64,000 bases of DNA from Patescibacteria group bacterium (GTDB taxonomy: Bacteria > Patescibacteriota > CPR2 > UBA1875): contig JAQVJW010000002.1 of NCBI GenBank assembly GCA_028694925.1, positions 9,797 to 73,796 on the forward strand, read 5' to 3'. The translations under genes were made by a program, and so were the position numbers. The notes under the pieces were generated by a model, which was not told the origin of the DNA, ran no database searches, and was given only the letters and a program-made list of their open reading frames with translations. Positions 1-62,903 of the stretch are shown piece after piece (within the stretch, counting starts at the first letter, position 1; the number at the start of each line of letters is the position of its first letter).

Positions 1-562
1 TTCAGCGTCAGAGGAGAGATTTGCCACCCCTGAAGCAGCCTATGAAATACAAGAGGACGAATTACCGGTGGAAATTCCAACAACAGCAAAAGGTTCTCAG
101 CCGATATCATCTGCACTCAAAGTCATTGGTGATATTGGTGAGAGATTGGTTTTGAAGTTTGAGCAAGACACAATTGGAAAGGACAGGCCAGATAAGCTTC
201 CTCTGATAAAGATAGTTTCTAATGATACAAGTCTGGGGTATGACATACAATCAATTAGTGATATAGATTTTAGGGAAAAGAAGTTTATTGAAGTTAAAAC
301 CACGAAGCGAACTTATGCTCCGGCGGAGCAGATTGTTACTTTTTTCCCAATGAGCGGGAACGAATGGGAAACTGCAAAATTGCTAAAAGAATGTTATTAT
401 ATTTACAGAGTATTTCTGACTTCAAAGGGTGTTAATATCTGTGTAATCAAAAATCCGGCGGAAAAGCACGATAAGGGATTAATAATACTCGAACCACTAG
501 ACTATAGGGTAATTTTAAAGGAAGCAGCAATTGATAGAATGCATGAATTAGAGGGGGTTTAG
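1..562 (+). CDS. DUF3883-domain protein, C-terminal fragment; the gene continues upstream of the window
   Basis: The frame is open from position 2 with no upstream stop, and the first start in the ORF track is GTG at 68. The sequence matches the DUF3883 pattern (GYDIxS..IEVKTT...NEWE.A....YYIYRV) seen in defence-island helicase/ATPase fusions. Confidence 0.55.
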   Translation, partial: SASEERFATPEAAYEIQEDELPVEIPTTAKGSQPISSALKVIGDIGERLVLKFEQDTIGKDRPDKLPLIKIVSNDTSLGYDIQSISDIDFREKKFIEVKTTKRTYAPAEQIVTFFPMSGNEWETAKLLKECYYIYRVFLTSKGVNICVIKNPAEKHDKGLIILEPLDYRVILKEAAIDRMHELEGV

Positions 563-565
563 CTA

Positions 566-1528
566 ATGAAGGTTGCATCACTGTTTTGTGGTTGTGGCGG
601 GTCTGATTTGGGACTAGAAGGAGGGTTTGAGTATATTGGCAAAAAATATTCACGCCTACCTTTCAAAGTTGTCTATGCTTTAGACAACGATGTAAAAGCC
701 GTGGCCACCTACAATATTAACTTCAAATTACCAGCTACCTTAGCTTCGATAAAAGACATCGATCCCAGTAGCATTCCCGATCACGATGTACTGGTCGGTG
801 GGTTTCCATGCCAGTCATTTAGTACCGTTAATCCAAATAAGAATCCTTTTGATGAAAGAGCGGGGTTGTATAAGGATATGGCTAAAATATTAAAAATTAA
901 GCAACCTAAAGCTTTTATTGCAGAAAATGTGAAGGGAATGATGACTCTTCACAAAGGTAAGATTTTTGAAAATGTGACCAAAGAGTTTGAAAAACAAGGC
1001 TATAAACTAAACCACTTATTGATTAATGCTGCAGACTTTGGTATTCCACAAAAAAGGCCACGAGTCTTTATTGTTGGTATCCGTAAGGATTTGGGGTTCC
1101 AATATCAATTTCCCCAAAACCCTGTCGATAAGGATAACTGGGTGGGGCTAAGGGCCGTAATCGACAGTCTAGTACCAAGCGACCCAAGGTATTACTTTTC
1201 GGAAAAAGCCGTTATTGGTATGAGAAATGCAAAAAATAACATGAAGAGGGGACTTGCTCAGGATTTAGAGTCCCCATGCCTTACTGTGACTTCGCATCTT
1301 GCCAAGGTAAGTCTTAACTCAAGGGACCCTGTTTTACTGGTTGACCCTAAAAAAGATTTATACCGGAGATTTACTCCACTTGAAGCGGCAAGAATACAAT
1401 CATTTCCTGACGATTTCAAATTTGTTGGCTCGGAAGCTGATGCTTACAGACAAATTGGTAACGCAATACCGCCGGTCGTGATGTGGCACATTGCTAAAGC
1501 ATTAAGCAAACAGCTCACTAATTCTTAG
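566..1528 (+). CDS. dcm: DNA (cytosine-5)-methyltransferase
   Basis: C5-MTase motifs are present: FCGCGG (motif I), GFPCQ (IV), ENV (VI), QKRPR (VIII) and GNAIPP (X). The start lies 3 nt after the upstream gene's stop. Confidence 0.9.
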   Translation: MKVASLFCGCGGSDLGLEGGFEYIGKKYSRLPFKVVYALDNDVKAVATYNINFKLPATLASIKDIDPSSIPDHDVLVGGFPCQSFSTVNPNKNPFDERAGLYKDMAKILKIKQPKAFIAENVKGMMTLHKGKIFENVTKEFEKQGYKLNHLLINAADFGIPQKRPRVFIVGIRKDLGFQYQFPQNPVDKDNWVGLRAVIDSLVPSDPRYYFSEKAVIGMRNAKNNMKRGLAQDLESPCLTVTSHLAKVSLNSRDPVLLVDPKKDLYRRFTPLEAARIQSFPDDFKFVGSEADAYRQIGNAIPPVVMWHIAKALSKQLTNS

Positions 1529-1644
1529 TTGTCTTGGAGGTGTGTGCACACTTCAAAAAATTGTGACCGGACAACAGGTTCAATATTTAACTTTTAACTT
1601 ATGATTTATCTTTCTCCAAGGCTGATTCATTCTTTGGCTTCATC

Positions 1645-2520
1645 GTGTTATACTTGAATTTAAAGGAGCTTGCTTTGCAAGAGTTTAAATATAAATTTAC
1701 TGAACTATTCAACCCATTGCTGGAGGCGATGCGATCTCTGGGTGGATCAGCAAAGATCAGAGAAATCGAAGATCGTGTTGCCGAAGTTATGTCCTTGTCA
1801 GAAGATGAAATTAGCGACATTCATAGAGGTAATACCACGAAGTTTAGCTATCGATTAGCTTGGGCCAGAACCTATTTGAAACAATTTGGTCTAATGGATA
1901 ACACTTTTTCTGGGGTGTGGATTCTTACTGCTAAAGGAAGAAGAATTAGTAAGGTAGATCCAACAGAGGTAATTAAGGTTAACAGAACTTTCAGTAAGAA
2001 AAACCCAGTTCATCAAAGCGAAATGAATGAAGAGGTTGAGGAAGCGTTTGATTGGCAGGATGAGCTTTTAACTAAGATTAAAACACTCAGCCCCGCTGAT
2101 TTTGAAATTCTTTGTCAGAGGATCCTAAGAGAATCAGGCTTTGAAGAAGTTGTAGTAACAGGTGGCACAGGTGACGGAGGCATCGATGGTATGGGCATTT
2201 TTAAGATGGGTGGTCTTATTGGTTTCCGGGTATATTTTCAATCTAAGAGATACACGGAAAACAGTGTTCCGAGCAAGGATATCACTAGATTTAAGGGAAC
2301 AATGGTGGGCAGAGCTGATAAGGGGTTGTTTATAACTACTAGTAAATTCACAAAATCTGCTAAAGAAGAGGCCAATCGGGATGGGTCTCCGCCAATTGAT
2401 CTCGTTGATGGACGAGATCTGGTTAATATAATGAAAAAACTTGGCATGGGAGTTGAGGTAGTGAATGAGGAAAAGATAAACCTTAACGATGATTGGTTTA
2501 AGAGCAATTTCGATAATTAA
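1645..2520 (+). CDS. mrr: Mrr-family restriction endonuclease (Mrr_N winged helix plus Mrr_cat PD-(D/E)xK)
   Basis: N-terminal Mrr_N-like region (FSYRLAWARTYLKQFGLMD) and an Mrr_cat core (GGTGDGGIDG...QSKRY). Confidence 0.8.
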   Translation: MLYLNLKELALQEFKYKFTELFNPLLEAMRSLGGSAKIREIEDRVAEVMSLSEDEISDIHRGNTTKFSYRLAWARTYLKQFGLMDNTFSGVWILTAKGRRISKVDPTEVIKVNRTFSKKNPVHQSEMNEEVEEAFDWQDELLTKIKTLSPADFEILCQRILRESGFEEVVVTGGTGDGGIDGMGIFKMGGLIGFRVYFQSKRYTENSVPSKDITRFKGTMVGRADKGLFITTSKFTKSAKEEANRDGSPPIDLVDGRDLVNIMKKLGMGVEVVNEEKINLNDDWFKSNFDN

Positions 2521-2743
2521 GGTTGCAACTTGCGTTAGAACTTTTTTGTAATAAATAATGTGGTATTTACCTATATGCTACAACAGAAACATAACAATTT
2601 AGTCTTTATCAAGAGAACGAAGGTAGTATAATAGTAACAAACGGAGGTATAGGAGGAATTTATTACTTCTTAAAGGGGTAGAAGGGGACCCATTATAGTG
2701 CTCCATAGTAAGGAGGAAAGACCTTTTATATAAGGTGAAAAAT

Positions 2744-2872
2744 ATGAGTGGAACAAGAGGGAATGGCTTAAAGGCCGCTGAAACAAACAAGAAAAGAAAG
2801 GGAGCCAATTTCTACGGAGAGATTGGCCTCAAGGGCAGACTTAAAATGGGAGTGAAAAAGGATTATGAGTAA
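2744..2872 (+). CDS. Small KGG-repeat-like stress protein (YciG/Con-6-like), 42 aa
   Basis: Translates to MSGTRGNGLKAAETNKKRKGANFYGEIGLKGRLK. It is a paralog of 3340..3531 with long identical DNA stretches. At under 60 aa it is absent from the ORF track. An AGGAGG lies upstream. Confidence 0.45.
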   Translation: MSGTRGNGLKAAETNKKRKGANFYGEIGLKGRLKMGVKKDYE

Positions 2873-3167
2873 TTTTATGATAAAAAATATCAGAAAATTA
2901 TTGGGTTTATCGATTAGGTTCATCGGATTGATATATATGTTCTGGATATTAGTGGTTAAATTTCCTCTGTTCTTTGTAGCATTTTATGATTTTAATTTTT
3001 ATGAGGATGTTCTTTCCACATGGGGAGCCGGGTTCATGATTAAATTAGTAATAACTTTACTTTTTTTTGTGCCTGCGATTTTACTATATAAGATTGGAAA
3101 TTTAGTCGAAGGACGCGACTGGGATTATTGGTTCGATGATATAATTAAGAGATTTAGCAAGGAGTAA
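2865..3167 (+). CDS. Hypothetical small membrane protein
   Basis: 100-aa ORF with two or three hydrophobic helices and no recognisable domain. Confidence 0.35.
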   Translation: MSNFMIKNIRKLLGLSIRFIGLIYMFWILVVKFPLFFVAFYDFNFYEDVLSTWGAGFMIKLVITLLFFVPAILLYKIGNLVEGRDWDYWFDDIIKRFSKE

Positions 3168-3171
3168 ATAT

Positions 3172-3336
3172 ATGACTGTATTGGCAATTTTCTTAGCAAT
3201 CCTTCTGGTGATACTGTTTATAATTTATACAACTGAGACTGAAGAAAAAGATGAGGAAATTGAAATTTTAGAAAACAGAATAACTAGTTTAGAGGGTGAC
3301 ATTGTTAAACTTAAGAAAAAATTTGGAAGAAGGTAA
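3172..3336 (+). CDS. Hypothetical mini-protein with a TM anchor and coiled coil (54 aa)
   Basis: Translates to MTVLAIFLAILLVILFIIYTTETEEKDEEIEILENRITSLEGDIVKLKKKFGRR. It was found by manual translation and is not in the ORF track. Confidence 0.3.
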   Translation: MTVLAIFLAILLVILFIIYTTETEEKDEEIEILENRITSLEGDIVKLKKKFGRR

Positions 3337-3339
3337 AAA

Positions 3340-3531
3340 ATGAGCGGAACTAAAAGGGGCGGTATTAAAGCTGCTGAAACAAACAAGAAAAGACATGGAG
3401 CCAATTTTTACAAAGAGATTGGTGCCAAGGGTGGATTGAAAACTGGTGTGAAAAAAGGATTTGCGGCTAACACCAATCTTGCCCGTCTAGCGGGTCAAAA
3501 AGGTGGAAGGATTTCAAAAAGAAAAGCTTGA
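3340..3531 (+). CDS. Small KGG-repeat stress-induced protein (two KGG motifs)
   Basis: GANFYKEIGAKGG and LAGQKGG fit the KGG stress-protein repeat. It is a duplicated paralog of 2744..2872. Confidence 0.55.
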   Translation: MSGTKRGGIKAAETNKKRHGANFYKEIGAKGGLKTGVKKGFAANTNLARLAGQKGGRISKRKA

Positions 3532-3562
3532 ATATCTATCAAATAATTTAAAGGTATAACAA

Positions 3563-6229
3563 ATGACAAAAGGACTTTTATTCAAAAAGTTTGTCCTACA
3601 CTTACACACTCCCGGATCAAGTGATTGGAAGGGTGGGAATAAAGCGGCTGAGGATATAGTAAAAAAAGCAATCGAGAAAGAGCTGGCTGCTATAGCAGTC
3701 ACTGATCATAACTCAGGTGATTTTGTCGATGAAATGAAAAAAGCTGCTGAGAAAACTAGTTTAGTGGTATTCCCTGGGGCTGAAATTGTTGCCACGGGCG
3801 GTAAGAAAGGCATACACTTAATTGTCATATTTGACGTCGATAAAAACTCCGCTCATGTAAAAGCTTTTTTAAATACAATTGGGATATATAAAAAAACTGC
3901 TGCCGCAGATAAAACAGTTAATGAGATAGCCCGTAAGCTAGAAGAGTTTGACCCTTCTGCAATTATCATTCTTGCCCACTGCCATTCTAGTAAAGGAGTA
4001 TCTGGCGATATGCAAGGGGAGGTTAGGGCTAACATTTTTAACCAGAAGAATGATTGTATTTTAGCTGCTGAGGCGGCTAGAAGCGACTTTGAAGCTACCG
4101 AGAAAATAGAAAAGCATACAAGAGTCATTGATCTACTCGATGGAAGTAATCCGAACTTCGGGAAGAAAAAGTTAGCCGTTATACAGGCTGCGGATTCTCA
4201 TGATCTGGACTCTGTGGGTGACAAATTTACTTATTTGAAAGTAGATGAAGTAATAACAATTGAAGATTTAAGGCAGGCCTTTATAGATAGGGAGACAAGA
4301 GTGAGGCAACCTTGGGAATATACAGAGAGTCAGTTTCCTAAAATATTGAGGGTAAAAGTTAAGAGCGGATTCCTGGATGGAGAGGAAGTTGAGTTTAATG
4401 ACGGTCTAAACAGTATTATAGGTTCAAAAGGATCTGGTAAATCATTACTAGTTGAATTACTAAGGTTTGCACTTAGCCAGGAATCACACATTAAGGCTGT
4501 TTCAGAGGATCACTTTTCTAAATTAGAGAATTGTTTAAAGTTACATGGGGTAGTAACCGTGACATTTTCAGACAAAACCGGGCATCTGTATGAATTGGAA
4601 AGGACGTATGCACCCTCAAGTGAAAGCCCGACCAGAATAACTGATTTAGAGGACGGGTCAATTAAAAGTTTTGATGTAGAGACCCTCTTCCCTATTTTAT
4701 TCCTAAGCCAAAATGAGGCTATTAGAATCGCAGAGGAGAATGGGGGTGAGAACCAAAGGAGATTTATAGATAGATTCTTCGATTTTCATAAATATCAGTC
4801 GGAGATTAAAAGGCTAAACAAAAGACTAGCTGAAATTGATACTCGCTTCGCTGATGCAATAGAATCAAAGTTTAAGTTAGGAGTTGTTCAAAAAGAGCTT
4901 GCTACATTAGAAGAAGAGGTTGCGAAACTAGATAGGCAAATGAAAAAAGATATATTCGCGGAGTATTCAGAAAAGGAGAAGATTAATATTAGCATCCGGA
5001 GTAAGTTAGATTTTTTCGACTCGTTAGAGTCGGGCCTTGAGTCAATAATAATTGATTACAGGGATATTCAAGAAAATAGTACAGCAACAGATGGGCCAGA
5101 CGATCCAATAATAAAAAGGTCAAACGAGATACTCCAGGGCACAACGAATAGTATAGTTGAGGGCTTATCGGGAATAAAAGATTTGATTGGGGCTGAAAAG
5201 AAAAAATTTAAAGCAGAGGTAGACGATTGGGATAAAAAGTTTAAGTCAATTAAAAATAGTTATCACGACGCTGTTCTAGAGGCCGGAGGTAGTCAGGTTG
5301 TCTTAAACGAACAAAGAGAAGGGGTATTGGCACGTATAAAAGAAAGGAAAAAAGAAGAGGCGTTTCTTAAGAGTAAAACCGTTTTATTGAATTCATTGGC
5401 TGATGAGCGGAAGAGTCTATTACGGGGGCTAGAAGAAACAAGAAAGGCTTATTACGATCAAAGAAAAGAGAGGTGTAAATATTTATCCGAAAAATCTTCT
5501 GGTTTGGTAAAGGTTTCGATTAAGGAGATGGAAGATAAGTCAGTATTTAAACAAAAATTACTTGCATTAAAAAAAGGTTCTTGGATTTCGGACAAGGATA
5601 TGGAAATTATGGCAGAGAAAATTAAGCCCAAAGACCTTGTTAGCTCTCTGATCAACTATGCGAATGGAACCAGAGAAAAAAGTGTTAAAAAAGTAATCTT
5701 AGCAACTGATATTGATGAAAAAACGGTTGAAAAATTATTTGACTTTTTAACAGGGAGTTTAGATGTTAGGGAGATCCTGGCTTTAATGTATGACTCTGTT
5801 CCGGAAGACGTTCCGGTTATTAAATATAAAGTGGGGACGGGGGAATACAGAGAATTAAAGGATCTTTCAACTGGGCAAAAGGCTTCTGCCTTACTGATAG
5901 TCGCTCTGACTGATGGTGACTTCCCAATTATTATCGATCAACCAGAGGATTCGCTGGATCTCGTTTCAATTTGGAATGATGTATGTGAAAACATTAGGAA
6001 AACTAAAGAGAAAAGGCAATTTATTTTTACTACACATAATTCTTCAGTCGCGGTGGCCTCTGACTCCGATAATTATATAATTTTAGAAGCTGATGCTACA
6101 ACCTGTAGAGTTGTTGTATCTGGGTCAAATAATTCTACTGAAGTTAACGATAAAATCGTAAGCTACCTTGAGGGAGGAAAGCCTACCTACGCCCTCAAGA
6201 GGAGAAAATATATCAATAAAAGAAAATAA
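3563..6229 (+). CDS. PHP-domain phosphoesterase fused to an SMC/RecF/SbcC-like ABC ATPase with a long coiled-coil insert (Ppl-like defence protein architecture)
   Basis: PHP motifs are HLHTPGSSD, AVTDHNS, AHCHSSKG and AADSHDLD. The Walker A is GSKGSGKSLL. A coiled coil of about 350 aa follows. The ABC signature is STGQKASALL, the Walker B/D-loop is IIIDQPEDSLD and the H-loop is FTTHNS. Confidence 0.75.
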   Translation: MTKGLLFKKFVLHLHTPGSSDWKGGNKAAEDIVKKAIEKELAAIAVTDHNSGDFVDEMKKAAEKTSLVVFPGAEIVATGGKKGIHLIVIFDVDKNSAHVKAFLNTIGIYKKTAAADKTVNEIARKLEEFDPSAIIILAHCHSSKGVSGDMQGEVRANIFNQKNDCILAAEAARSDFEATEKIEKHTRVIDLLDGSNPNFGKKKLAVIQAADSHDLDSVGDKFTYLKVDEVITIEDLRQAFIDRETRVRQPWEYTESQFPKILRVKVKSGFLDGEEVEFNDGLNSIIGSKGSGKSLLVELLRFALSQESHIKAVSEDHFSKLENCLKLHGVVTVTFSDKTGHLYELERTYAPSSESPTRITDLEDGSIKSFDVETLFPILFLSQNEAIRIAEENGGENQRRFIDRFFDFHKYQSEIKRLNKRLAEIDTRFADAIESKFKLGVVQKELATLEEEVAKLDRQMKKDIFAEYSEKEKINISIRSKLDFFDSLESGLESIIIDYRDIQENSTATDGPDDPIIKRSNEILQGTTNSIVEGLSGIKDLIGAEKKKFKAEVDDWDKKFKSIKNSYHDAVLEAGGSQVVLNEQREGVLARIKERKKEEAFLKSKTVLLNSLADERKSLLRGLEETRKAYYDQRKERCKYLSEKSSGLVKVSIKEMEDKSVFKQKLLALKKGSWISDKDMEIMAEKIKPKDLVSSLINYANGTREKSVKKVILATDIDEKTVEKLFDFLTGSLDVREILALMYDSVPEDVPVIKYKVGTGEYRELKDLSTGQKASALLIVALTDGDFPIIIDQPEDSLDLVSIWNDVCENIRKTKEKRQFIFTTHNSSVAVASDSDNYIILEADATTCRVVVSGSNNSTEVNDKIVSYLEGGKPTYALKRRKYINKRK

Positions 6230-6233
6230 GGTG

Positions 6234-7040
6234 ATGAATGTAGAAAAGGGACCACTCGAGCAATCATATGAACTCGCCAATCTTGCTACTTTTGATGCGA
6301 CTGCTTTTGTGGGAGACGAGTCAGCATCTCAAGAGCTTTGTGACTTTATTTTGACGTTGGCAGTTATGTGCAATGAGCTGAAAGATTTGTCGAACATTAA
6401 AAAAGAAATTATAACAACCAGTCCAGTTAAGATAGACTCCCAATTGATTACTCCTCAAAAGGGTAATCTGGGGGGTTATTTGGCATTTATTTTGAGATTA
6501 TATATCTTGAAAGTTTATGAAATGTCGGAATTATTTCGTTCAAGTCTAGTTCTAATAGAATCAAGTCAATTTGAGGTTTATCTTAAAAAAATTAGCAAAA
6601 AACAAAGAGAAATGTGGGACTCTTCAGTAGCAATGCTTACCAATAATAAGGCCGACGGTAAGTTTAATAAGGTATTAACAGTCGTGAGACACAAGACAGC
6701 CGGACATTGCGAGGCCAAAGAAATAGCTAAGGGATATCGTTTTTATTTTATAGATAGAAAAGGTATGGAGCCTTACATTTCGTTTGGTGATGGTATACCG
6801 TCAACCAGGTTTCATTTTGCAGATGCGGCAATGGAAGGCTACCTACTTAAGAAACACAAAGATCTTTCGGCGGGGTATATTGAAAAGGAAATGGATGAGC
6901 TAATTAGCTATCTGTACAATTCGGTCTGGTTGTTAGTAGGTAAGTTTGTTAATTCCAGGAGTTCTTGGAAAAAACCGACCGAAGACAAATTGCCTGAGCC
7001 AGAGGGTTTTGGGGTTAAGGGTTTAAGGTCAAAGTTATAA
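6234..7040 (+). CDS. Hypothetical protein, tightly coupled partner of the PHP-ATPase
   Basis: The ATG lies 4 nt after the upstream stop. It encodes 268 aa with no recognisable motif. The ORF track entry 6168..7040 includes an upstream overlap. Confidence 0.5.
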   Translation: MNVEKGPLEQSYELANLATFDATAFVGDESASQELCDFILTLAVMCNELKDLSNIKKEIITTSPVKIDSQLITPQKGNLGGYLAFILRLYILKVYEMSELFRSSLVLIESSQFEVYLKKISKKQREMWDSSVAMLTNNKADGKFNKVLTVVRHKTAGHCEAKEIAKGYRFYFIDRKGMEPYISFGDGIPSTRFHFADAAMEGYLLKKHKDLSAGYIEKEMDELISYLYNSVWLLVGKFVNSRSSWKKPTEDKLPEPEGFGVKGLRSKL

Positions 7041-7296
7041 AGTCGTTCCTATATTTTCGCCAAATGGAACACATATCAAATAGACCATTTTATCGGCCTA
7101 TTTCTAATAATGACACAGGAAACTACCATGCTGAGGTAAAAGTTTCTTATTGTTATTATGTACTGTGAGGATTTTTCCTTAAAATTAAAAGATATGCAGA
7201 AGATCGCTCCACCTCAGCATATGTTTACAAAGTAAACCTATTTACCTCCCTAAAAAACGTGAATATGTAGCAAAATTGTTATAGATTCACGTTATA

Positions 7297-7337: not shown

Positions 7338-8228
7338 ATGGCAATTTCTAAAAATATTAGAAAAAATCTAAACAATCTTAAACGAGAGTATGATTCCTTA
7401 AAGAAGGGCAAAGAATCTCTTTTGGATATGCTATTTGAGGTAGAAATTCCAGAGTCAGTCTATAACTCTAACGCTATTGAAAACTCAACCCTAACCATCA
7501 AAGAAACAGAAAAGATATTAATGGAGATGGAGGTTTCTAGGGATGTCTCTGTACGTGAAGTCTTTGAAGCAAAAAACTTGGCAAAAGTCTTTGAATTTAT
7601 TAAGGCCCAATCCCAAAAAGATAATTTGGATAAAGAGTTTATTTTACTAATCCATAAAATGTTAATTGATAATATTAATGGAAATATTGCTGGAAGATTT
7701 AGAAAACCCGGTGAATATGTCCGAGTTGGTACTCATATTGCCCCAGCACCAGAACAGGTACCAGACCTTATAGAGTCAGCTCTGTTGGAATATTCTAGTA
7801 ATTTAAACTCCTATTTTCTGGAAAAAATTCCCAAGTTTCACCTAGAGTTCGAAGATATACATCCTTTCTGCGACGGCAATGGGCGTATTGGCAGAGTAAT
7901 CCTTAACTATCAACTAATGGATCTTGGATTTCCGCCTATTATTATAAGGGATAAAGAAAAAGCTGATTATTACCAATCATTCAGGGAATACAATATTAAG
8001 AATAAAACTGACCAAATGGAAAGGGTTTGCTATCTAGCGCTTCTAGAGTCTTTTCATAAAAGAATTACCTATTTAAAGGGTCAAAAAATCATTACATTGG
8101 CAGATTATGCTAAAAGAAATAAGGAGCCACTTAATGCCCTTTCTAATCGAGCTAAAAGACAAACGATACCTGCCTTTAGGGAAAAAGGCATCTGGAAGAT
8201 TGGTAAGGAGTATAAGAAATATCTCTAA
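7338..8228 (+). CDS. Fic/DOC family protein, class II (N-terminal inhibitory SxxxEN motif)
   Basis: Canonical Fic motif HPFCDGNGRIGR, with an upstream inhibitory-helix motif SNAIEN. Confidence 0.85.
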   Translation: MAISKNIRKNLNNLKREYDSLKKGKESLLDMLFEVEIPESVYNSNAIENSTLTIKETEKILMEMEVSRDVSVREVFEAKNLAKVFEFIKAQSQKDNLDKEFILLIHKMLIDNINGNIAGRFRKPGEYVRVGTHIAPAPEQVPDLIESALLEYSSNLNSYFLEKIPKFHLEFEDIHPFCDGNGRIGRVILNYQLMDLGFPPIIIRDKEKADYYQSFREYNIKNKTDQMERVCYLALLESFHKRITYLKGQKIITLADYAKRNKEPLNALSNRAKRQTIPAFREKGIWKIGKEYKKYL

Positions 8229-27527: not shown

Positions 27528-27572
27528 ATTTGTTTTTGTTTGCATAAGCACGCAAAAAAATGTAAAATTGAA

Positions 27573-30500
27573 ATGTCAGTTAAGGGGGTAGACCTGAAGA
27601 GGAAGGGAAAGACAGAAAAGGTTTTCTATAACCTCGGCTTATTCATAAATCGAGTTCGATTAGCATACCTTGAAGGGCTTAATAAAACGCATCTTAAGAT
27701 CCGTAAACTCCATGATGTGACCTACCAAAGAGGTGGGAAGTATAAGGCTTGGAGTGATAAACCATATTCATCCACTATTCACAAAACCGCTATGATAACT
27801 TTTATTGCTTCTTTTGTGATCTTTTCACTCGCCCAAAACATTTTCCCAAATCTCTTTAACCTCACAATCCCCAACAATGCCCTGGCGGGGTCAACTCAAG
27901 TTGTTTGGACGACCAAGGACCACTTTGAGAATAATGGCGCTACAAATTCCAATTATACTGGTGCGACAACCTCTACAGACGTGGTTATAAGTGGGGATAA
28001 CAATGATGTAACTGACTCCAATAATAATGACGATATAACACTTGGAAATCCTGATATAAATTTTGATACAATTTCGATATCTGAAGGTTATAATTATTCA
28101 TTAGCAATTAAGACTGATGGATCGCTATGGGCTTGGGGGTCTAACTCTAGTGGACAGCTTGGCTTGGGCGATACTACAACAAGGACAACACCAGTTCAAG
28201 TTGGTTCATCTATTGATTGGAGTTATATTGATACAGACGGTTCTTTGAATCCTAGTTCCTATGGCATTAAAACCGACGGCACATTATGGGCTTGGGGCGA
28301 AAATGAATGGCGACAACTTGGGCTCGGAGATACAACTGATAGATTAGTGCCCACTCAGGTGGGAACTTCCACAAACTGGAAAAGAGTTTCGGCTGGGGGT
28401 TCATTTGCGTTAGCAATTAAAACAGACGGCACATTGTGGGCTTGGGGGTCTAACTCTAGTGGACAGCTCGGCTTGGGCGATACTACAAATAGGTTGGTTC
28501 CAACCCAAGTGGGAGTCGGTGTGAATTGGGATTCCCTTGATACCGCTGAAGGAAGCTCCTTTGCAATAAAAACAGATGGCACATTATGGGCTTGGGGCGG
28601 CAATTATTATGGTCATCTTGGGCTCGGAGATACCACAAATAGGTTGGTTCCAACCCAAGTGGGATCTGATACTGATTGGAAGATCGTAAATACTGAAACA
28701 CCAAATATTTTTGGAGAAAGTTCTTTCGCAATAAAAAATGATGGAACATTGTGGGGTTGGGGCTATAATTATTCTGGTAGCTTGGGTTTAGGAGACACTA
28801 GTCCTAGACCTACTCCCACCCAAATCGGGACCGATACAAATTGGAAATATGTATTTGCGGGATCACATGCGGTAGGAATTAAAACAGACGGCACATTATG
28901 GGCTTGGGGGTCTAACTCTAGTGGAGAGCTTGGCTTGGGCGATACTACAAATAGGTTGGTTCCAACCCAAGTGGGATCTGATACTGATTGGAAGATGATT
29001 TCAGCTCCTAGGTCGACTACTATTGCTACCAAAACGAACAATACATTTTGGGGTTGGGGTTACAATGCTTATTCACAACTTGGTTTAGGCGATACAACAA
29101 ATAGGTTGGTCCCAACCCAAGTGGGATCTGATACGGATTGGCTTGGGGTTGTTGTGGAATATCCATCGACAGGTTCTCTTACAGAACTAAAAGTTGATGC
29201 TGGTTCTGGTAACAAAGCTTCTTGGGCTAGTGTCTCCTGGAACGAAGAAATACTTGCAAATACCGACATTATTTTTAACGTCCGCACTTCAGACGATAAT
29301 GCAACCTGGAGTGATTGGAGTGCTGATTTAACGACACCCGGTGGGTCTAGTTTATCTTCCGCTGACCCTTCTAGGTATCTTGAAATTAAGGTAACCCTTT
29401 CTAGTTCCGACGGACTCAACACCCCAACCCTAAATGATTTCACGGTTACCTACGACACCCTCGAAGCCCCGGTTAATGAAAACATCGTTCTTACAAAGAC
29501 CGATGACTCTAGCCTATATACTTCATCTGGTACCCTAGTATCAGGTGGCATAGCTGGTGCCTATAGTAACGAATCATCTCTAAGAATTTCTGCCACTGGT
29601 CTTACGTGTGGCGGAGGTGATTCTGGAGAGCCAGCTTGTGAAGGTACTTCTACAAACATTAGACCCGAGGTAGAAGTCTCAAACATCACTGATACAGACT
29701 TTTCAACCCCAGTCTTTACGGGAGAAGCCGCTCAAGGCTCTGACTACGTTGATGCTACGGGCCTTACGGCTGGTGAATCATATCATATTAGAGTTCGAGC
29801 GATTGATGATGAGGGAAGAGTCTCTGCTTGGACCAATTATGTTGGTGATGCTACGGCCATAACCATTGAACAAACCCCACCGACGGGGACGGTTGTGATT
29901 GATGAAGGGGAATATACTAAAGATGCCACAGTTAATTTGAATCTATCCGCAGCGGATGAAGGTGGCTCAGGGCTTTCCCAAATGCGATTTAGTAATTCTG
30001 GTGCTGAGGGGCAATGGAGTGATTGGGAAACATATGCAACCTCTAAGGCTTGGGATATTACAAATGCTACTTATGGTGGTAACACTAACGAAGAAGAAAA
30101 GACTGTTTATGTGCAGTATAAAGACAATGCAGGGAATATAAGTGGAACATGGCTACAGACGAGTGATGAGGATTTTAATGCAGGGACAAAAGACCAAATA
30201 TCTGTTTCAGGTGACTTATATAGACTAACGATGGATTGGATATTAGGTCCAGTGGCTGGGATTGAGGTATACAAAGAAGATCAAATTGGAGCAGCTTGGC
30301 AGACTTCAAACACTGACTGTCCCGCACCTCAATGCAACGGATCATATCTCGTTGATCCTTTTTTGAATCCAGAGGTTGATTTTTCGGCTTATCCTGCTCA
30401 GAATGCCTGTAAGAACATTGGGGGAAGATTGCCCACCCCTGGTGAATTGGGCGATATTTATACTTATAAGTTGGATTATGGTAATAACTTTACGTATCAT

Positions 30501-33500
30501 ACTTCTTTTTATCACTGGACAAATGCAGAAACCTTTCTAGGATCTGATGCTTTTTTCCAATATTTCTCCACTGGCCTCACTGGTGCCAGAGCGAAAAACC
30601 AGCTACATTATTCTAGGTGCGTAAGGAGCGAAGGAACTGGTTCAAATGAATATAGTACAACAGGGGTTTATACCTCTTCTGTTAAGGACAACATCAATTT
30701 CAAAAACTATAGCCGCTTACACTGGTCAGCTAATATTCCCTCAGAAACAGGCGCTGATGCGCTTCGATTCCAGGTAGCCTCAAATAACGACAATGTAACC
30801 TGGAACTATGTTGGCCCAGATGGAACGGCCGGGACATACTATGATGCCGACGACAATGGCATACAAATACATTCCTCGCACAACGGACACAGATATATAA
30901 GATATAAAGCCTATCTTCAAACAGCCAATTCTAGTTATACCCCCACTGTTTATGATGTTGGAATCGAAGTTCTAAGCATTAACGCTTCCATCCTTTACGA
31001 CCACACTCCTCCCGCAAACACTGAAGCAACTATCACCTATCCTACTGCTGGGGAATCGCTTATTGGTGCCACCGAAGAAGAGATAACCTGGGATGATACC
31101 AAAATAACCGACCCAGGCGATAATGCCTCTGGCCTTTTGGCTGATGGCACGACGGCCATTACCATTCAGTTTACTTCTGATAATGGTAACAACTGGAGTA
31201 CAGTAGAATCCGGTCTTCCTAACTCTGGCTCATATACCTGGACTGTCCCTAATAACTCAACCTGCGTTAACCAGTGTCGCATTGCCGTTCTGGCTCAAGA
31301 TAAAGCCGGTAATGAAAACACCCCTGCGGATGCCAATACTACCTCGGCCCTCTTTTCCATCATTGCCGACTCTCAAGCCCCTCAGTGGGATGCAGGAACA
31401 GTTCTTGACGTAAGTAACACCAAGTATATTAGTGGAGCCACTACTTGGACCGATGCTACCCCAACCCTATCCTGGACTCCTGCTCCAACTGACCCCGCCC
31501 CTGGAAGCGGTATTGCCGAATATGAAGTTATCTTTGAAGGTGCCACAGCCGAAACTATTACTGGTCTTACGACCACTGAAGCCACTCCAACTCTCGCAGA
31601 AGGAGTCCATGAGTGGTATGTAAACGCGATTGATGGGGCCGGCCTTTCTGCTAATACTAAAGATGAACTCTCACGTACGAAAACCATTTCGGTAGATGCC
31701 ACTGCTCCGAATGCAACCCTAAATATTATTTCCCTTACAGGTGGTGCGGCTACTAACTCTTGCACTGTAGCGATTAACCTTGCCGATCAGGTGGAAGTAG
31801 GTTCAGGGATTTCCTCGATCCAGTATTCCAATGACGAACTTATCTGGAGCTCCCTTGGCGAGGGTTCCACCTGGGATCTTTGTTCGGCCAGCTCTACTAA
31901 AGGTACAAAAACAGTCTACGCCCGCCTAATCGATAATGTGGCTAATCAACGAACCATTTCAAGTACCATCCTTTATGAAGATACACTACCCACGAACCCC
32001 TCTGCTGTAACGGCGACCCTTGTTCCCCCAGGGGATGTGCCATCTACCTATGTCGATGATGCTTGGGTTGGTAACTCCTCAATCTCTATCGAGTGGAGCG
32101 GTGAAATCGATCCTGAACCAAACTCAAGTGGCGTTGCGAGTTACGTTGTCTATCGCTCCACAGATAACGGTGCCTACACCGAAGTTTCGGCTGATTCGGC
32201 TTCCCCCTATGTAGATACGGGTCTCGTTGATGGTCATAATTACAAATATATTATTAAAGTGATTGATGATGCCGGTAATAGCTCCCTTTACCAGACAAAC
32301 CCAGTAATTGGGGAACTTAATGTAGCCGATATTACGAGTCCCGAGCCACCTGAAAATTTCAATGCCTCGGGAACAGATTCAACAACAATTGATGTTACCT
32401 GGAACTCGGCGCCGGAAAACTCAATCTCTCACTCTGGTAAGGCCGATAGCTATACAATTGAAAGAACGGCTGATAGTGCCTTGGGTTCTTCTGAGCCAAC
32501 TAATGATGATACCTGTAATACCTATACCTATTCTGATACCATTCAATCGCCAATTACTTTTGAGCAAGGTGGAGTTTATGATCCCGGTAACGATAAGTAT
32601 ACTATTACCGATACGGTTAATGCTGAAGAGTGGTACTACTACCGAATAAAAGCAATTGACGAAAGACCCTCTGACTCTGACTATACTTGTTTTAAGGCTC
32701 GCGGTAACTTTGCGCCTGAATTCCCTCAAGAGAATATCAACCTTAGTGCAGATACTGTGGTCCCTGGCGATGAAGTTACCATTACATTTACAGCAACTGA
32801 CTTTGATGGGGCCACCGACCTTGATACTGGTAATGCCATCCAACAACTTAAAATCCAAGATGGGGCCCTGGCCGAAGTCCTTGCCTATACCGAGGTTACC
32901 GAAAAAGAAGCATATAATGACGGTGCCCGTTATGGCTACACCTATACCTATGGCTACACTGTCCCAGAGACGGCTAAATACGGCACCTATACCGTAACCA
33001 TTAATGTGGCTGACTCTGTAGCAGTTGGTAGCCCGGGTGATAACTTCCATAATCAAACCAAACAAGTGCAGTTTAAGGTGCCACCAGCCGCTCCAACCTC
33101 ACTTTCGGCTACTGGCTATACCTCAACAAGTGTTAATCTTACCTGGACGGCTCCCGGGAATGCCGGAAACCAGGCTGGGCTTCGAGGGACTAACCCTTAC
33201 TCCGTAAAAAGAAGGTCTTATGGTAGCTCTGATCCTTTTGTTCATCTTGCCTATTCAAATGCCACCTCATATACTAACTCCGGTCTTGCCTTGGGGACTG
33301 CCTATGAATACCAAGTAGTTGCCTTTGATATCAATGGGAACGAGGGTCCCGCGTCAAATAACTCTAATGCTATTCCGCCAGCCCCAGCGACCCCAGCGTC
33401 AGCGACCGTGCGTGACGCTTCTCATACCTCAATCGATTTAGGGGGTACCTACCCATTACGTTACTTTGTGACTTGGGATGCGGTTACCGAATCATCTGTC

Positions 33501-35285
33501 CCTGACTTTAAAGGGTACAAAGTCTATCGAAGTACTGATGGTGGAGAGTATACCTATCTAGATACCATAGACTGTGACACCCTCGGTGAGAACCGGACTT
33601 ACTATTTAGACCTTCATACTGCCGCGGACGAAGGTACTTCTTATCAATATCAGGTTCATACCTGGGATGAAGCGGGAAACATTGGTGATGGGGTTACGAC
33701 CCTAGCGACTGATGCTAGTGTAACGCCGACTGTTACCACTCCAACTTTGGATTCTAAAGGTGTCAGTTGGATTAAGGTTAAGTGGACGACCGATCAAGAA
33801 GCATATAGCTTAGTAGAATACAAAAAAGCTGATGCTTCAAGTTATTCTATTGCTGGCCAAAAATCAATAATCACCGAAAAGACCGGTGATAGCTACCAAC
33901 ACACAGTAACTATTAGGGGACTTGAGAAGAACCAAGATTACAATATTCGGGTTAAATCTGTCAATCAAAGTAATATTATGAGCGCTTCATCAAACGAGAT
34001 TACAGTTAAAACTGAGAACTTTGCTATTAGTGATGTTAAAAAAGATATTAAGGCCTCATCGGCCACTATCTCTTGGAACACAGGTTCGGTACCTTCAAAT
34101 GCGATTGTTATCTATAACAAAATAGGCAGTGGAGCTCAGTCGGATACTTCTGATAACCCACCAAAAGAGACAATGAAGACAAGCCATTCCGTTGAGATTA
34201 GTAACCTTACTCCAGGGGACTATTCCTTCTACGTAAAGAGCTATGACGCTGAAGGAAACCTAGCCGAGGCTGGTAATACCAACCTATATACCTTCACTAT
34301 CACTGGTTTCGATACTGGTACCCTCTCAGACCCTAAGGCCGGTAAGATTGAAGAACAAGATATTACGGCAACAAGTGCCAAGATAACTTGGACCTCAACC
34401 GTCTCTACTTCATCCTGGGTAGACTATGGTACCACTTCGGGTAACTATGGTAAGAGTACCGGCTCCGATACCCTAACGATTGACCACATCGTTACCCTTG
34501 AAGGGTTAACCCCAGGTCAAACCTACTACTACATTGTTCGGGGCCTTGATGCTAATGGGACCGAGTACAAGTCTCAGGAGTATTCTTTTGTTGCTCTTGC
34601 TCGTCCTTCTATCTCAAATGTTGAAGTTCTCGAAGTTACCTCATATACCGCGCGTATTAGGGTCGAGGTCACGAAAGAGACCGAAGCCTCAATTACTTAC
34701 GGGATTAATGGTGCCTTTAATGAGAAAGCAGGGGGCGGCTCACTAGCTCGAGTTCATGATATTGAGCTTACAAACCTTACTGATAAATCAAACTACTCTT
34801 TCTATGTTGATGTTAAGGATAGTGCTGGAAATACGGCCAAGAGTGAGACCAAAACCTTCAAAACCCCACTTGATACAACTGGTCCTACCATCTCCTCGGT
34901 TAAGATAGACCTTCTTCCAATTGGAGAGAGTGATGAATATGCCCAAGCAATCATCTCCTGGACTACTGATAAGCCAGCCACTACCTTAGTTATGTATGAC
35001 GAAGGGGTTATTGGTGGAGAGTATGGTTCATCCTCAATCGAAGACACCTCCTTAAATACCGCCCACACCGTGATTGTAAAAGAGCTTTTACCTTCTACTA
35101 CCTACAGGTTTCAACTGGTTTCAAAAGACAAACGAGGGAATGAGTCGAAATCAGCAGACTACAACTTTGTTACCCCATCTCGTGAGAAATCTATCCTACA
35201 GCTCATCTTAAAGTCACTCGAGGAGACCTTCTCCTGGGTTCGTAATGTGGGGGGATTCTTTAGGAATATAGGGGAGAAGTTTTAA
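27573..35285 (+). CDS. Giant surface protein (about 2,570 aa) with N-terminal RCC1-like beta-propeller repeats followed by many fibronectin-III/Ig-like domains
   Basis: More than 8 tandem DGTLWAWGSNSSGQLGLGDTTNRLVPTQVG RCC1-type repeats, then repeated blocks with WT/WTS/YYY motifs. The start is uncertain: the ORF track uses TTG at 27540, the first ATG is at 27573, and a TM/signal-anchor segment (MITFIASFVIFSLA) lies about 85 aa in. Confidence 0.75.
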   Translation: MSVKGVDLKRKGKTEKVFYNLGLFINRVRLAYLEGLNKTHLKIRKLHDVTYQRGGKYKAWSDKPYSSTIHKTAMITFIASFVIFSLAQNIFPNLFNLTIPNNALAGSTQVVWTTKDHFENNGATNSNYTGATTSTDVVISGDNNDVTDSNNNDDITLGNPDINFDTISISEGYNYSLAIKTDGSLWAWGSNSSGQLGLGDTTTRTTPVQVGSSIDWSYIDTDGSLNPSSYGIKTDGTLWAWGENEWRQLGLGDTTDRLVPTQVGTSTNWKRVSAGGSFALAIKTDGTLWAWGSNSSGQLGLGDTTNRLVPTQVGVGVNWDSLDTAEGSSFAIKTDGTLWAWGGNYYGHLGLGDTTNRLVPTQVGSDTDWKIVNTETPNIFGESSFAIKNDGTLWGWGYNYSGSLGLGDTSPRPTPTQIGTDTNWKYVFAGSHAVGIKTDGTLWAWGSNSSGELGLGDTTNRLVPTQVGSDTDWKMISAPRSTTIATKTNNTFWGWGYNAYSQLGLGDTTNRLVPTQVGSDTDWLGVVVEYPSTGSLTELKVDAGSGNKASWASVSWNEEILANTDIIFNVRTSDDNATWSDWSADLTTPGGSSLSSADPSRYLEIKVTLSSSDGLNTPTLNDFTVTYDTLEAPVNENIVLTKTDDSSLYTSSGTLVSGGIAGAYSNESSLRISATGLTCGGGDSGEPACEGTSTNIRPEVEVSNITDTDFSTPVFTGEAAQGSDYVDATGLTAGESYHIRVRAIDDEGRVSAWTNYVGDATAITIEQTPPTGTVVIDEGEYTKDATVNLNLSAADEGGSGLSQMRFSNSGAEGQWSDWETYATSKAWDITNATYGGNTNEEEKTVYVQYKDNAGNISGTWLQTSDEDFNAGTKDQISVSGDLYRLTMDWILGPVAGIEVYKEDQIGAAWQTSNTDCPAPQCNGSYLVDPFLNPEVDFSAYPAQNACKNIGGRLPTPGELGDIYTYKLDYGNNFTYHTSFYHWTNAETFLGSDAFFQYFSTGLTGARAKNQLHYSRCVRSEGTGSNEYSTTGVYTSSVKDNINFKNYSRLHWSANIPSETGADALRFQVASNNDNVTWNYVGPDGTAGTYYDADDNGIQIHSSHNGHRYIRYKAYLQTANSSYTPTVYDVGIEVLSINASILYDHTPPANTEATITYPTAGESLIGATEEEITWDDTKITDPGDNASGLLADGTTAITIQFTSDNGNNWSTVESGLPNSGSYTWTVPNNSTCVNQCRIAVLAQDKAGNENTPADANTTSALFSIIADSQAPQWDAGTVLDVSNTKYISGATTWTDATPTLSWTPAPTDPAPGSGIAEYEVIFEGATAETITGLTTTEATPTLAEGVHEWYVNAIDGAGLSANTKDELSRTKTISVDATAPNATLNIISLTGGAATNSCTVAINLADQVEVGSGISSIQYSNDELIWSSLGEGSTWDLCSASSTKGTKTVYARLIDNVANQRTISSTILYEDTLPTNPSAVTATLVPPGDVPSTYVDDAWVGNSSISIEWSGEIDPEPNSSGVASYVVYRSTDNGAYTEVSADSASPYVDTGLVDGHNYKYIIKVIDDAGNSSLYQTNPVIGELNVADITSPEPPENFNASGTDSTTIDVTWNSAPENSISHSGKADSYTIERTADSALGSSEPTNDDTCNTYTYSDTIQSPITFEQGGVYDPGNDKYTITDTVNAEEWYYYRIKAIDERPSDSDYTCFKARGNFAPEFPQENINLSADTVVPGDEVTITFTATDFDGATDLDTGNAIQQLKIQDGALAEVLAYTEVTEKEAYNDGARYGYTYTYGYTVPETAKYGTYTVTINVADSVAVGSPGDNFHNQTKQVQFKVPPAAPTSLSATGYTSTSVNLTWTAPGNAGNQAGLRGTNPYSVKRRSYGSSDPFVHLAYSNATSYTNSGLALGTAYEYQVVAFDINGNEGPASNNSNAIPPAPATPASATVRDASHTSIDLGGTYPLRYFVTWDAVTESSVPDFKGYKVYRSTDGGEYTYLDTIDCDTLGENRTYYLDLHTAADEGTSYQYQVHTWDEAGNIGDGVTTLATDASVTPTVTTPTLDSKGVSWIKVKWTTDQEAYSLVEYKKADASSYSIAGQKSIITEKTGDSYQHTVTIRGLEKNQDYNIRVKSVNQSNIMSASSNEITVKTENFAISDVKKDIKASSATISWNTGSVPSNAIVIYNKIGSGAQSDTSDNPPKETMKTSHSVEISNLTPGDYSFYVKSYDAEGNLAEAGNTNLYTFTITGFDTGTLSDPKAGKIEEQDITATSAKITWTSTVSTSSWVDYGTTSGNYGKSTGSDTLTIDHIVTLEGLTPGQTYYYIVRGLDANGTEYKSQEYSFVALARPSISNVEVLEVTSYTARIRVEVTKETEASITYGINGAFNEKAGGGSLARVHDIELTNLTDKSNYSFYVDVKDSAGNTAKSETKTFKTPLDTTGPTISSVKIDLLPIGESDEYAQAIISWTTDKPATTLVMYDEGVIGGEYGSSSIEDTSLNTAHTVIVKELLPSTTYRFQLVSKDKRGNESKSADYNFVTPSREKSILQLILKSLEETFSWVRNVGGFFRNIGEKF
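28080..29160 (+). repeat. Near-identical tandem DNA repeats of about 150-160 nt encoding the RCC1 blades
   Basis: Long exact matches, for example 28421-28510 against 28881-28985 and 28621-28690 against 28941-29000. Confidence 0.8.
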
Positions 35286-47908: not shown

Positions 47909-47985
47909 TGGTGGGTGGTACTGGATTCGAACCAGTGACCTCTGCAATGTCAATGCAACGCTCTAACCAACTGAGCTAACCACCC
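47909..47985 (-). tRNA. tRNA-Val (anticodon GAC), CCA-encoded
   Basis: Manual fold: acceptor GGGUGGU/ACCACCC, anticodon stem UUGCA/UGCAG with loop UUGACAU, and T-loop GGUUCGAAUCC. Confidence 0.85.
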
Positions 47986-57438: not shown

Positions 57439-57515
57439 CGGGGTGTGGCGCAGTTGGCTAGCGCGTACGCATGGGGTGCGTGAGGTCGCAGGTTCGAGTC
57501 CTGTCACCCCGACCA
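57439..57515 (+). tRNA. tRNA-Pro (anticodon GGG), CCA-encoded
   Basis: Manual fold: acceptor CGGGGUG/CACCCCG, anticodon stem UACGC/GCGUG with loop AUGGGGU, and T-arm GCAGGUUCGAGUCCUGU. Confidence 0.85.
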
Positions 57516-62516: not shown

Positions 62517-62903
62517 GGGGCTGACTTGGCTTCGACGGAAGTTACTTGAAATCAGAATAATGCAATTCGCGGTCGCATATCCGCGTTAACCAATATGTAA
62601 ACAAATAAGTGTAAAAACACTTGCCGCTAAAGTTAGAAATGCATTTAGCATGCCTGCTTTAGCAACTGTTGTCGCATAACTGCGGTAACCATCTGCTCCC
62701 CAACGTCCGATAGGGGTCAGCAGGTGCTAGAACTTCGGGCTGCTCTGGGTGACTTGCCTAAACCCAGCTAAGACTTAGGTAATTGGTTGTAAGTTTTTTC
62801 TTAGATCTTTAGCTTGCAACCGAGAAAAGAGATCTGAGTATGATTGCTAAAGTTGTTCTGGTTTTGCTTTCGGACGCGGGTTCAATTCCCGCCAGCTCCA
62901 CCA
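62517..62903 (+). ncRNA. ssrA: tmRNA (transfer-messenger RNA)
   Basis: 5' GGGGCUGACUUGGCUUCGACG and a 3' tRNA-like end GGACGCGGGUUCAAUUCCCGCCAGCUCCACCA. The internal tag ORF ends ...GCA TAA. Confidence 0.8.

Follow-up and report, generated by a model that had tools for sequence, protein, structure and literature searches.

BpuJI, a Type IIS restriction-modification (R-M) system of Bacillus pumilus, recognizes 5'-CCCGT (PDB 2VLA; Sukackaite et al. 2007, PMC1874659). Its nuclease is a Mg2+-dependent dimer whose activity rises when two sites are present, and it cleaves at variable positions close to the recognition sequence. The single bpuJIR gene lies between two 5-methylcytosine (m5C) methylase genes, an arrangement that fits an asymmetric site (PMC1874659). 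BpuJI is the closest relative of a gene cassette found at the edge of the stretch of DNA analysed here, a 64,000-nt window from a Patescibacteria group bacterium (contig JAQVJW010000002.1, positions 9,797 to 73,796). At the start of this window, the 3' part of a nuclease gene (R) is followed on the same strand by a gene for a C5-cytosine DNA methyltransferase (M2) and by a gene for an Mrr-type restriction endonuclease, which resembles EcoKMrr, a Type IV enzyme of Escherichia coli K-12. Our analysis makes it very probable that the window edge cuts a three-gene BpuJI-family Type IIS R-M operon, M1-R-M2, and that the downstream gene, with its Mrr_N and Mrr_cat domains, encodes an independent Type IV-like enzyme. 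The host differs from that of BpuJI, being a metagenome-assembled genome (MAG) of the Patescibacteria (candidate phyla radiation, CPR) rather than a Bacillus.

A first-pass annotation of the window had placed a DUF3883 protein, a Dcm-type C5-methyltransferase and an Mrr-type nuclease in its first 2,520 nt, and all three genes and their domains were confirmed there, with domain matches well beyond chance expectation. The window part of R matches Pfam NOV_C, formerly DUF3883, over residues 46-142 (E 4.9e-13); M2 matches PF00145 DNA_methylase across its whole length (E 1.9e-74); and the open reading frame (ORF) at 1645-2520 matches both Mrr_N (2.9e-22) and Mrr_cat (2.8e-29). The reading frame of R is frame 2 and is open at the window start: positions 2..562 of the plus strand, ending in a TAG stop at 560-562, encode the C-terminal 186 codons (aa 271-456 of 456). 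M2, of 320 aa, runs from an ATG at 566 to 1528 on the plus strand, so that exactly 3 nt (563-565) separate it from the stop codon of R, the spacing that the first-pass annotation had given.

The DNA upstream of the window was recovered by an exact-sequence look-up with the methylase, which led to a public 11.8-kb contig (L001). The final 7,072 bases of this contig are identical to window positions 1-7072, with zero mismatches, and it contributes 4.7 kb more upstream sequence. On L001 we found a second C5 methyltransferase gene, M1, at 2858-3904 (PF00145 at 7.5e-72), followed by the full-length R gene (456 aa) at 3914-5284, of which the part encoding the N-terminal 270 aa (3914-4722) lies outside the window, and by M2 at 5288-6250. 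The order is thus M1-R-M2, with gaps of 9 nt between M1 and R and 3 nt between R and M2. In the NCBI record, the same four genes, the Mrr-type gene included, code for MDD3480694-MDD3480697, which follow one another on a Patescibacteria MAG contig of 75 kb. A promoter and terminator scan of the cassette performed no better than on shuffled sequence (23 promoter-like sites versus 19.8 +/- 5.4), and our argument for an operon therefore uses gene spacing alone. The start of M1 is ambiguous: the NCBI product has 354 aa (ATG at L001 2840), whereas the Logan gene call has 348 aa (start at 2858).

With the upstream sequence in hand, the N-terminal part of R proved to be a BpuJI sequence-recognition domain. 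Full-length R matches BpuJI_N over residues 3-265 (E 4.2e-50) and then NOV_C over residues 317-412 (1.8e-12), and it matches the crystal structure of the BpuJI recognition domain (PDB 2VLA/5HLT) at E 5.9e-28. In an AlphaFold model built on 31 homologues (mean predicted local distance difference test score, pLDDT, 87.3), both domains are confidently modelled and disorder is confined to a linker at residues 292-308; a Foldseek comparison of this model with 2VLA gave a target-normalised template-modelling (TM) score of 0.87. R has the two winged-helix subdomains of the BpuJI N-terminal recognition domain, and its C-terminal domain is a PD-(D/E)XK domain like that of archaeal Holliday-junction resolvases, carrying a Y-D...E-V-K triad; Sukackaite et al. 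described such a relationship for the catalytic domain of BpuJI (PMC1874659). The window accordingly contains the end of the recognition domain, the disordered linker and the Holliday-junction-resolvase-like nuclease and dimerisation domain. The first-pass annotation had proposed to look for a helicase or ATPase module at the N-terminus; this expectation failed, as the full-length protein has BpuJI_N and NOV_C only and the model consists of winged-helix bundles without a P-loop domain.

The residues on which BpuJI depends are also present in R. The catalytic residues D351, E367 and K369 (window codons 242-244, 290-292 and 296-298) are invariant in 31 of 31 aligned homologues and are the counterparts of BpuJI D348, E367 and K369, whose alanine mutants lose catalysis but keep binding (PMC1874659); the spacing from D to E is 16 residues in R and 19 in BpuJI. 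According to mutant data quoted in PMC9240713, alanine substitutions at BpuJI N67 and Q208 abolish DNA binding. We found identical residues at the corresponding positions of R, namely N67, which is invariant in the 31 homologues, and Q204, and the recognition-helix motif KTxxNHRTE is kept as well. FokI and Nt.BspD6I are likewise Type IIS enzymes with winged-helix recognition domains, but the catalytic domain of R belongs to a different PD-(D/E)XK lineage, Hjc-like rather than FokI-like, and BpuJI, with its variable cut positions, also differs from FokI, whose cuts fall at fixed distances. NCBIfam assigned no family to R or to the Mrr-like protein. Together, these results lead us to predict that R is a BpuJI-family Type IIS restriction endonuclease, and not merely the "DUF3883 domain-containing protein" of the public record.

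M2 carries the motifs of a C5 methylase: all six that we checked are present, namely I (FCGCGG), IV (PCQ), VI (ENV), VIII (QKRPR), IX and X (GNAIP). It scores 249.8 bits against the TIGR00675 dcm superfamily, and its nearest solved structure is M.HaeIII (3.7e-40). M1 and M2 are both intact, are only 31% identical and diverge mainly in the variable target-recognition region between motifs VIII and IX, as is expected of two enzymes that read two different strands. Here, as in BpuJI, an m5C methyltransferase gene stands on either side of R, and by analogy we infer that the target is asymmetric and that each of the two enzymes methylates one of its strands. We also considered whether M2 might be an orphan Dcm-type methyltransferase without an associated nuclease, as the first-pass annotation had allowed. 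This candidate was rejected: a nuclease gene ends 3 nt upstream, and M2 scores 77.3 bits against the Dcm subfamily model NF007772, whose cutoff is 710.

The assignment of the methylases was then assessed across relatives. A scan of one genome per species yielded 510 loci with a relative of R, and 80 of these were fetched and searched by tblastn with the window's own proteins. In 74 of the 80, an M1 orthologue (50-66% identity) lies directly upstream and an M2 orthologue (45-69%) directly downstream of R, all on the same strand, and this M1-R-M2 layout is kept across phyla. Two further loci are interrupted by a contig end, L062 has M2 alone, and L059 has no methylase downstream. By contrast with the locus studied here, where an Mrr-type gene follows the cassette, none of the 80 relatives contains an Mrr homologue. 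Because M2 orthologues adjoin R in a conserved cassette that lacks an Mrr homologue in all 80 loci, we assign M2 to R and predict that it does not belong to Mrr. This agrees with one of two possibilities raised by the first-pass annotation, that the methylase is part of the DUF3883 protein's system and that Mrr is a separate guard.

Two of the fetched loci, both members of the BpuJI-proper clade, depart from the common pattern in another way. In L076 (7189-12074) and L078 (6520-12166), R is flanked by N6/N4-type methylases, one upstream and two downstream, and there is no C5 pair. The nuclease family and the layout are unchanged while the methylation chemistry is different, which suggests methylase replacement within the BpuJI family.

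The Mrr-type gene occupies positions 1675..2520 of the plus strand and encodes 281 aa from a TTG start, as in the NCBI record. An alternative GTG start at 1645 would give 291 aa. The TTG start, which is preceded by AAGGAG at 1662-1667, is the better supported of the two. The gap between M2 and the Mrr-like gene is 146 nt from the TTG and 116 nt from the GTG, and the 117 nt given in the first-pass annotation fits neither exactly. The protein consists of an Mrr_N winged-helix domain and a C-terminal Mrr_cat nuclease domain, matches the PADLOC model mREase_IV at 9.1e-32, and aligns end to end with EcoKMrr by BLASTP (residues 8-276 versus 6-304, 24% identity, E 8e-18). EcoKMrr is somewhat longer (304 aa), and the inter-domain linker of the Mrr-like protein is shorter.

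The catalytic motif shared by Mrr enzymes, (D/E)...(D/E/Q)xK, is defined in the review by Loenen and Raleigh (PMC3874153). In the Mrr-like protein it reads G-T-G-D-G-G-I-D171 (codon 2185-2187) followed by Q189-S-K191 (2239-2247), in register with D203...Q219-A-K221 of EcoKMrr; D203A is the established catalytic mutant of that enzyme (PMC5435990). The catalytic domain also matches those of the m5C-dependent Type IIM/IV enzymes AspBHI and MspJI (PDB 4OC8 at 2.9e-4 and 4F0P at 1.8e-3), with which it shares the Mrr_cat fold, but its N-terminal reader is an Mrr_N winged helix and not the SRA-like base-flipping domain of MspJI. A study of winged-helix (wH) fusions (PMC11037411) names Mrr-type fusions in passing and gives no specificity for Mrr_N. 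A weak match to NA-iREase1 (1e-7) raised the possibility that the Mrr-like gene is inactive; we rejected it in view of the far stronger Mrr_cat match and the intact D...QxK motif.

To place the Mrr-like protein among its relatives, we turned to their genomic contexts. They form a very large family: more than 7,900 matches fall below 1e-10, many of them from Patescibacteria. Contexts were surveyed at eleven loci in all, six of which came from a metagenome scan with the Mrr protein. The neighbourhoods are varied: one relative (L083) has housekeeping genes only as neighbours, another (L085) lies directly after a Type I hsdS...hsdR, a third (L084) adjoins an N6/N4 methylase and a ResIII helicase, and a fourth (L090) adjoins a TIR protein and a methylase remnant. 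None of the eleven loci has an M2 orthologue or a shared methylase beside the Mrr relative, and where a C5 methylase does occur nearby, its identity to M2 is no higher than 32%, compared with 45-69% for true orthologues. Varied neighbourhoods without an M2 orthologue are characteristic of solitary defence genes, which end up in defence islands. The Mrr-like gene itself has no cognate methyltransferase, since the adjacent M2 belongs to the BpuJI-type cassette, and we predict from these features that it encodes a stand-alone, methylase-less Type IV-like restriction enzyme.

The L090 locus has features of its own. At 188-1484 of that contig, the Mrr relative is split into two ORFs (636-821 and 936-1484) and stands directly after a 93-aa C5-methylase remnant in which PCV replaces the catalytic PCQ; a CAP12/Pycsar-type TIR protein follows. 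Either the locus has decayed or the metagenome contig contains a sequencing error.

The first-pass annotation had regarded an Mrr enzyme beside a cytosine methyltransferase as unusual. However, mrr of E. coli K-12 lies directly beside other restriction systems, hsdRMS and mcrBC, likewise has no cognate methylase, and coexists with a resident Dcm, with which it is compatible because the two specificities do not overlap (PMC3874153). The apparent paradox thus dissolves: coexistence is normal and needs only non-overlapping specificities.

These findings suggest how the locus may work. If R behaves as BpuJI does (PMC1874659), it would dimerise through its C-terminal domain while its N-terminal domains bind two unmethylated sites; binding would relieve autoinhibition of the nuclease, and cleavage would follow near the site. 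On the biochemistry of BpuJI (PMC1874659), M1 and M2 would methylate one cytosine each, on one strand each, of the asymmetric target, which is probably CCCGT/ACGGG or something close. The Mrr-like enzyme would cut DNA bearing foreign methylation patterns that the host does not make, and it would sit beside the cassette because defence genes cluster.

Some observations weigh against parts of this reading. The recognition domain of R is about 27% identical to that of BpuJI, so its specificity may differ. CCCGT/ACGGG is mildly under-represented in 68.7 kb (49 observed versus about 60 expected; ratio 0.82, z -1.8, rank 19 of 512), an avoidance that is not significant. The modification dependence of Mrr-fold enzymes is not readable from sequence: LlaGI has Mrr motifs, but methylated DNA is not its target (PMC3874153). 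Finally, the absence of Mrr from the relatives indicates that the cassette needs no Mrr, but a local functional interplay in this genome may still exist.

The first two of these observations bear on the alternative that survives best, in which a BpuJI-family cassette with a recognition sequence other than CCCGT represents a new Type IIS specificity in a Patescibacteria clade. The BpuJI-like enzymes of this clade are 47-55% identical to one another and, like R, about 27% identical to BpuJI, and the family is plastic, as L076 and L078 have swapped C5 for N6/N4 methylases. Several features point the other way. [quoted passage not shown] On balance, we hold a specificity other than CCCGT to be a tentative possibility, and judge the chance that the R system recognizes CCCGT or a close variant, as predicted from these comparisons, to be roughly even or better. 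Should the clade prove to have a specificity of its own, new Type IIS reagents could be obtained from it. A broader version of this idea appears unlikely: that the clade has a non-CCCGT specificity and, in addition, that the Mrr-like enzyme is tuned to tolerate the resulting m5C pattern while cutting the m5C or N6-methyladenine (m6A) patterns of competitors, such that the four genes form a co-adapted two-layer barrier in an organism without most other defences.

A related proposal leaves the specificity aside and holds that the cassette and the Mrr-like gene are a co-adapted two-layer unit that moves together, with Mrr selected to ignore the m5C made by M1 and M2 and to attack the methylated DNA of competitors. 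The four genes are indeed consecutive and co-oriented, and some compatibility is required for both to be intact in one genome. The linkage is not conserved, however, as an Mrr homologue accompanies 0 of the 80 cassette relatives, and compatibility between a resident methylase and a Type IV enzyme is a general rule, exemplified by Dcm and Mrr in K-12 (PMC3874153), with nothing specific to this pair. We therefore consider such a unit distinctly improbable, and prefer an independent Mrr-like enzyme beside a BpuJI-family operon.

It is very improbable that R is a decayed or inactive remnant and that the two methylases are effectively orphans. Degenerate relatives do exist, as L062 and L059 illustrate, but nothing specific to this locus points to decay: R is full length (456 aa), its catalytic triad and DNA-binding residues are intact, both of its domains are confidently modelled, and the gene spacing is tight and operon-like.

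Weakest of all is the other possibility raised by the first-pass annotation, in which the Mrr-fold protein would be a Type II-like endonuclease that is blocked by modification, with M2 as its protecting methylase; we regard it as barely credible. In its favour, the Mrr-like gene adjoins M2 on the same strand, modification dependence does not follow from an Mrr-type nuclease domain alone (LlaGI, PMC3874153), and in L090 a decayed Mrr relative comes right after what is left of a C5 methylase. Against it, 74 of the 80 loci have an M2 orthologue beside R and none of those carries an Mrr homologue, conserved linkage of an Mrr nuclease with an M2 orthologue is absent from all eleven Mrr loci, Mrr relatives lack a nearby methylase or lie beside unrelated Type I or Type III systems, any C5 methylase near them falls below the identity range of true M2 orthologues, M2 lies 3 nt from R but 116-146 nt from Mrr, and the whole Mrr-like protein, Mrr_N included, aligns with EcoKMrr.

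The cassette and its neighbours make up a small defence island of a Patescibacteria genome, one more case of restriction-based defence clustered in an island among candidate-phyla-radiation bacteria. The locus adds one member to the known BpuJI family, next to an independent Mrr-type enzyme, and holds nothing surprising to a specialist. Its value lies mainly in annotation: R can be renamed a putative Type IIS restriction endonuclease of the BpuJI family, with M1 and M2 as its cognate m5C methylases. The family to which R is assigned is widespread, with 510 genomic relatives in many phyla, and its M1-R-M2 layout is very stable (74 of the 80 fetched).

Downstream of the Mrr-like gene are two small KGG-motif genes, a gene for a TrlF-family PHP-SMC ATPase, an unannotated partner ORF of 290 aa and a gene for a Fic protein, followed by ordinary chromosomal genes. 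The PHP-SMC protein (888 aa; 3563-6229, plus strand) has an N-terminal PHP phosphoesterase domain and an SMC/AAA ATPase domain and scores 394 bits against NCBIfam TrlF, above the cutoff of 350. A second resemblance is to the anti-phage protein Ppl (PADLOC 7e-46), although the NCBIfam Ppl score of 196 bits is far under the cutoff of 1000. The 290-aa ORF (6168-7040, plus strand) overlaps the PHP-SMC gene and has no family match; together, the two probably form another defence module of the island. The Fic/DOC-domain protein (7338-8228, plus strand; Pfam 5.4e-20) matches the candidate defence family PDC-S04 of PADLOC at 2.4e-37 and SoFic at 7.6e-25, and its gene is the far end of the island. On the other side, upstream of M1, L001 42-2432 holds a gene for an 86-aa XRE-type helix-turn-helix protein (1690-1950, minus strand), one for a DUF5659 protein, several small unannotated genes and two small hydrophobic ORFs.

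Further into the window, a 2,581-aa ORF (27540-35285, plus strand) with RCC1 repeats, fibronectin type III domains and purple-acid-phosphatase N-terminal domains is likely to encode a surface protein. The window also carries genes for tRNA-Val (GAC) at 47909-47985, tRNA-Pro (GGG) at 57439-57515 and a transfer-messenger RNA (tmRNA) at 62517-62903 with the tag peptide VKTLAAKVRNAFSMPALATVVA, and the presence of these three genes identifies it as chromosomal. Finally, a 121-nt direct repeat (77% identity) at 2739-2859 and 3335-3455 is the duplicated 5' part of a small, stress-protein-like KGG-motif gene: the two copies encode 42 aa (at about 2744-2872) and 63 aa (3340-3531), and between them lie two small hydrophobic ORFs at 2865-3167 and 3172-3336.

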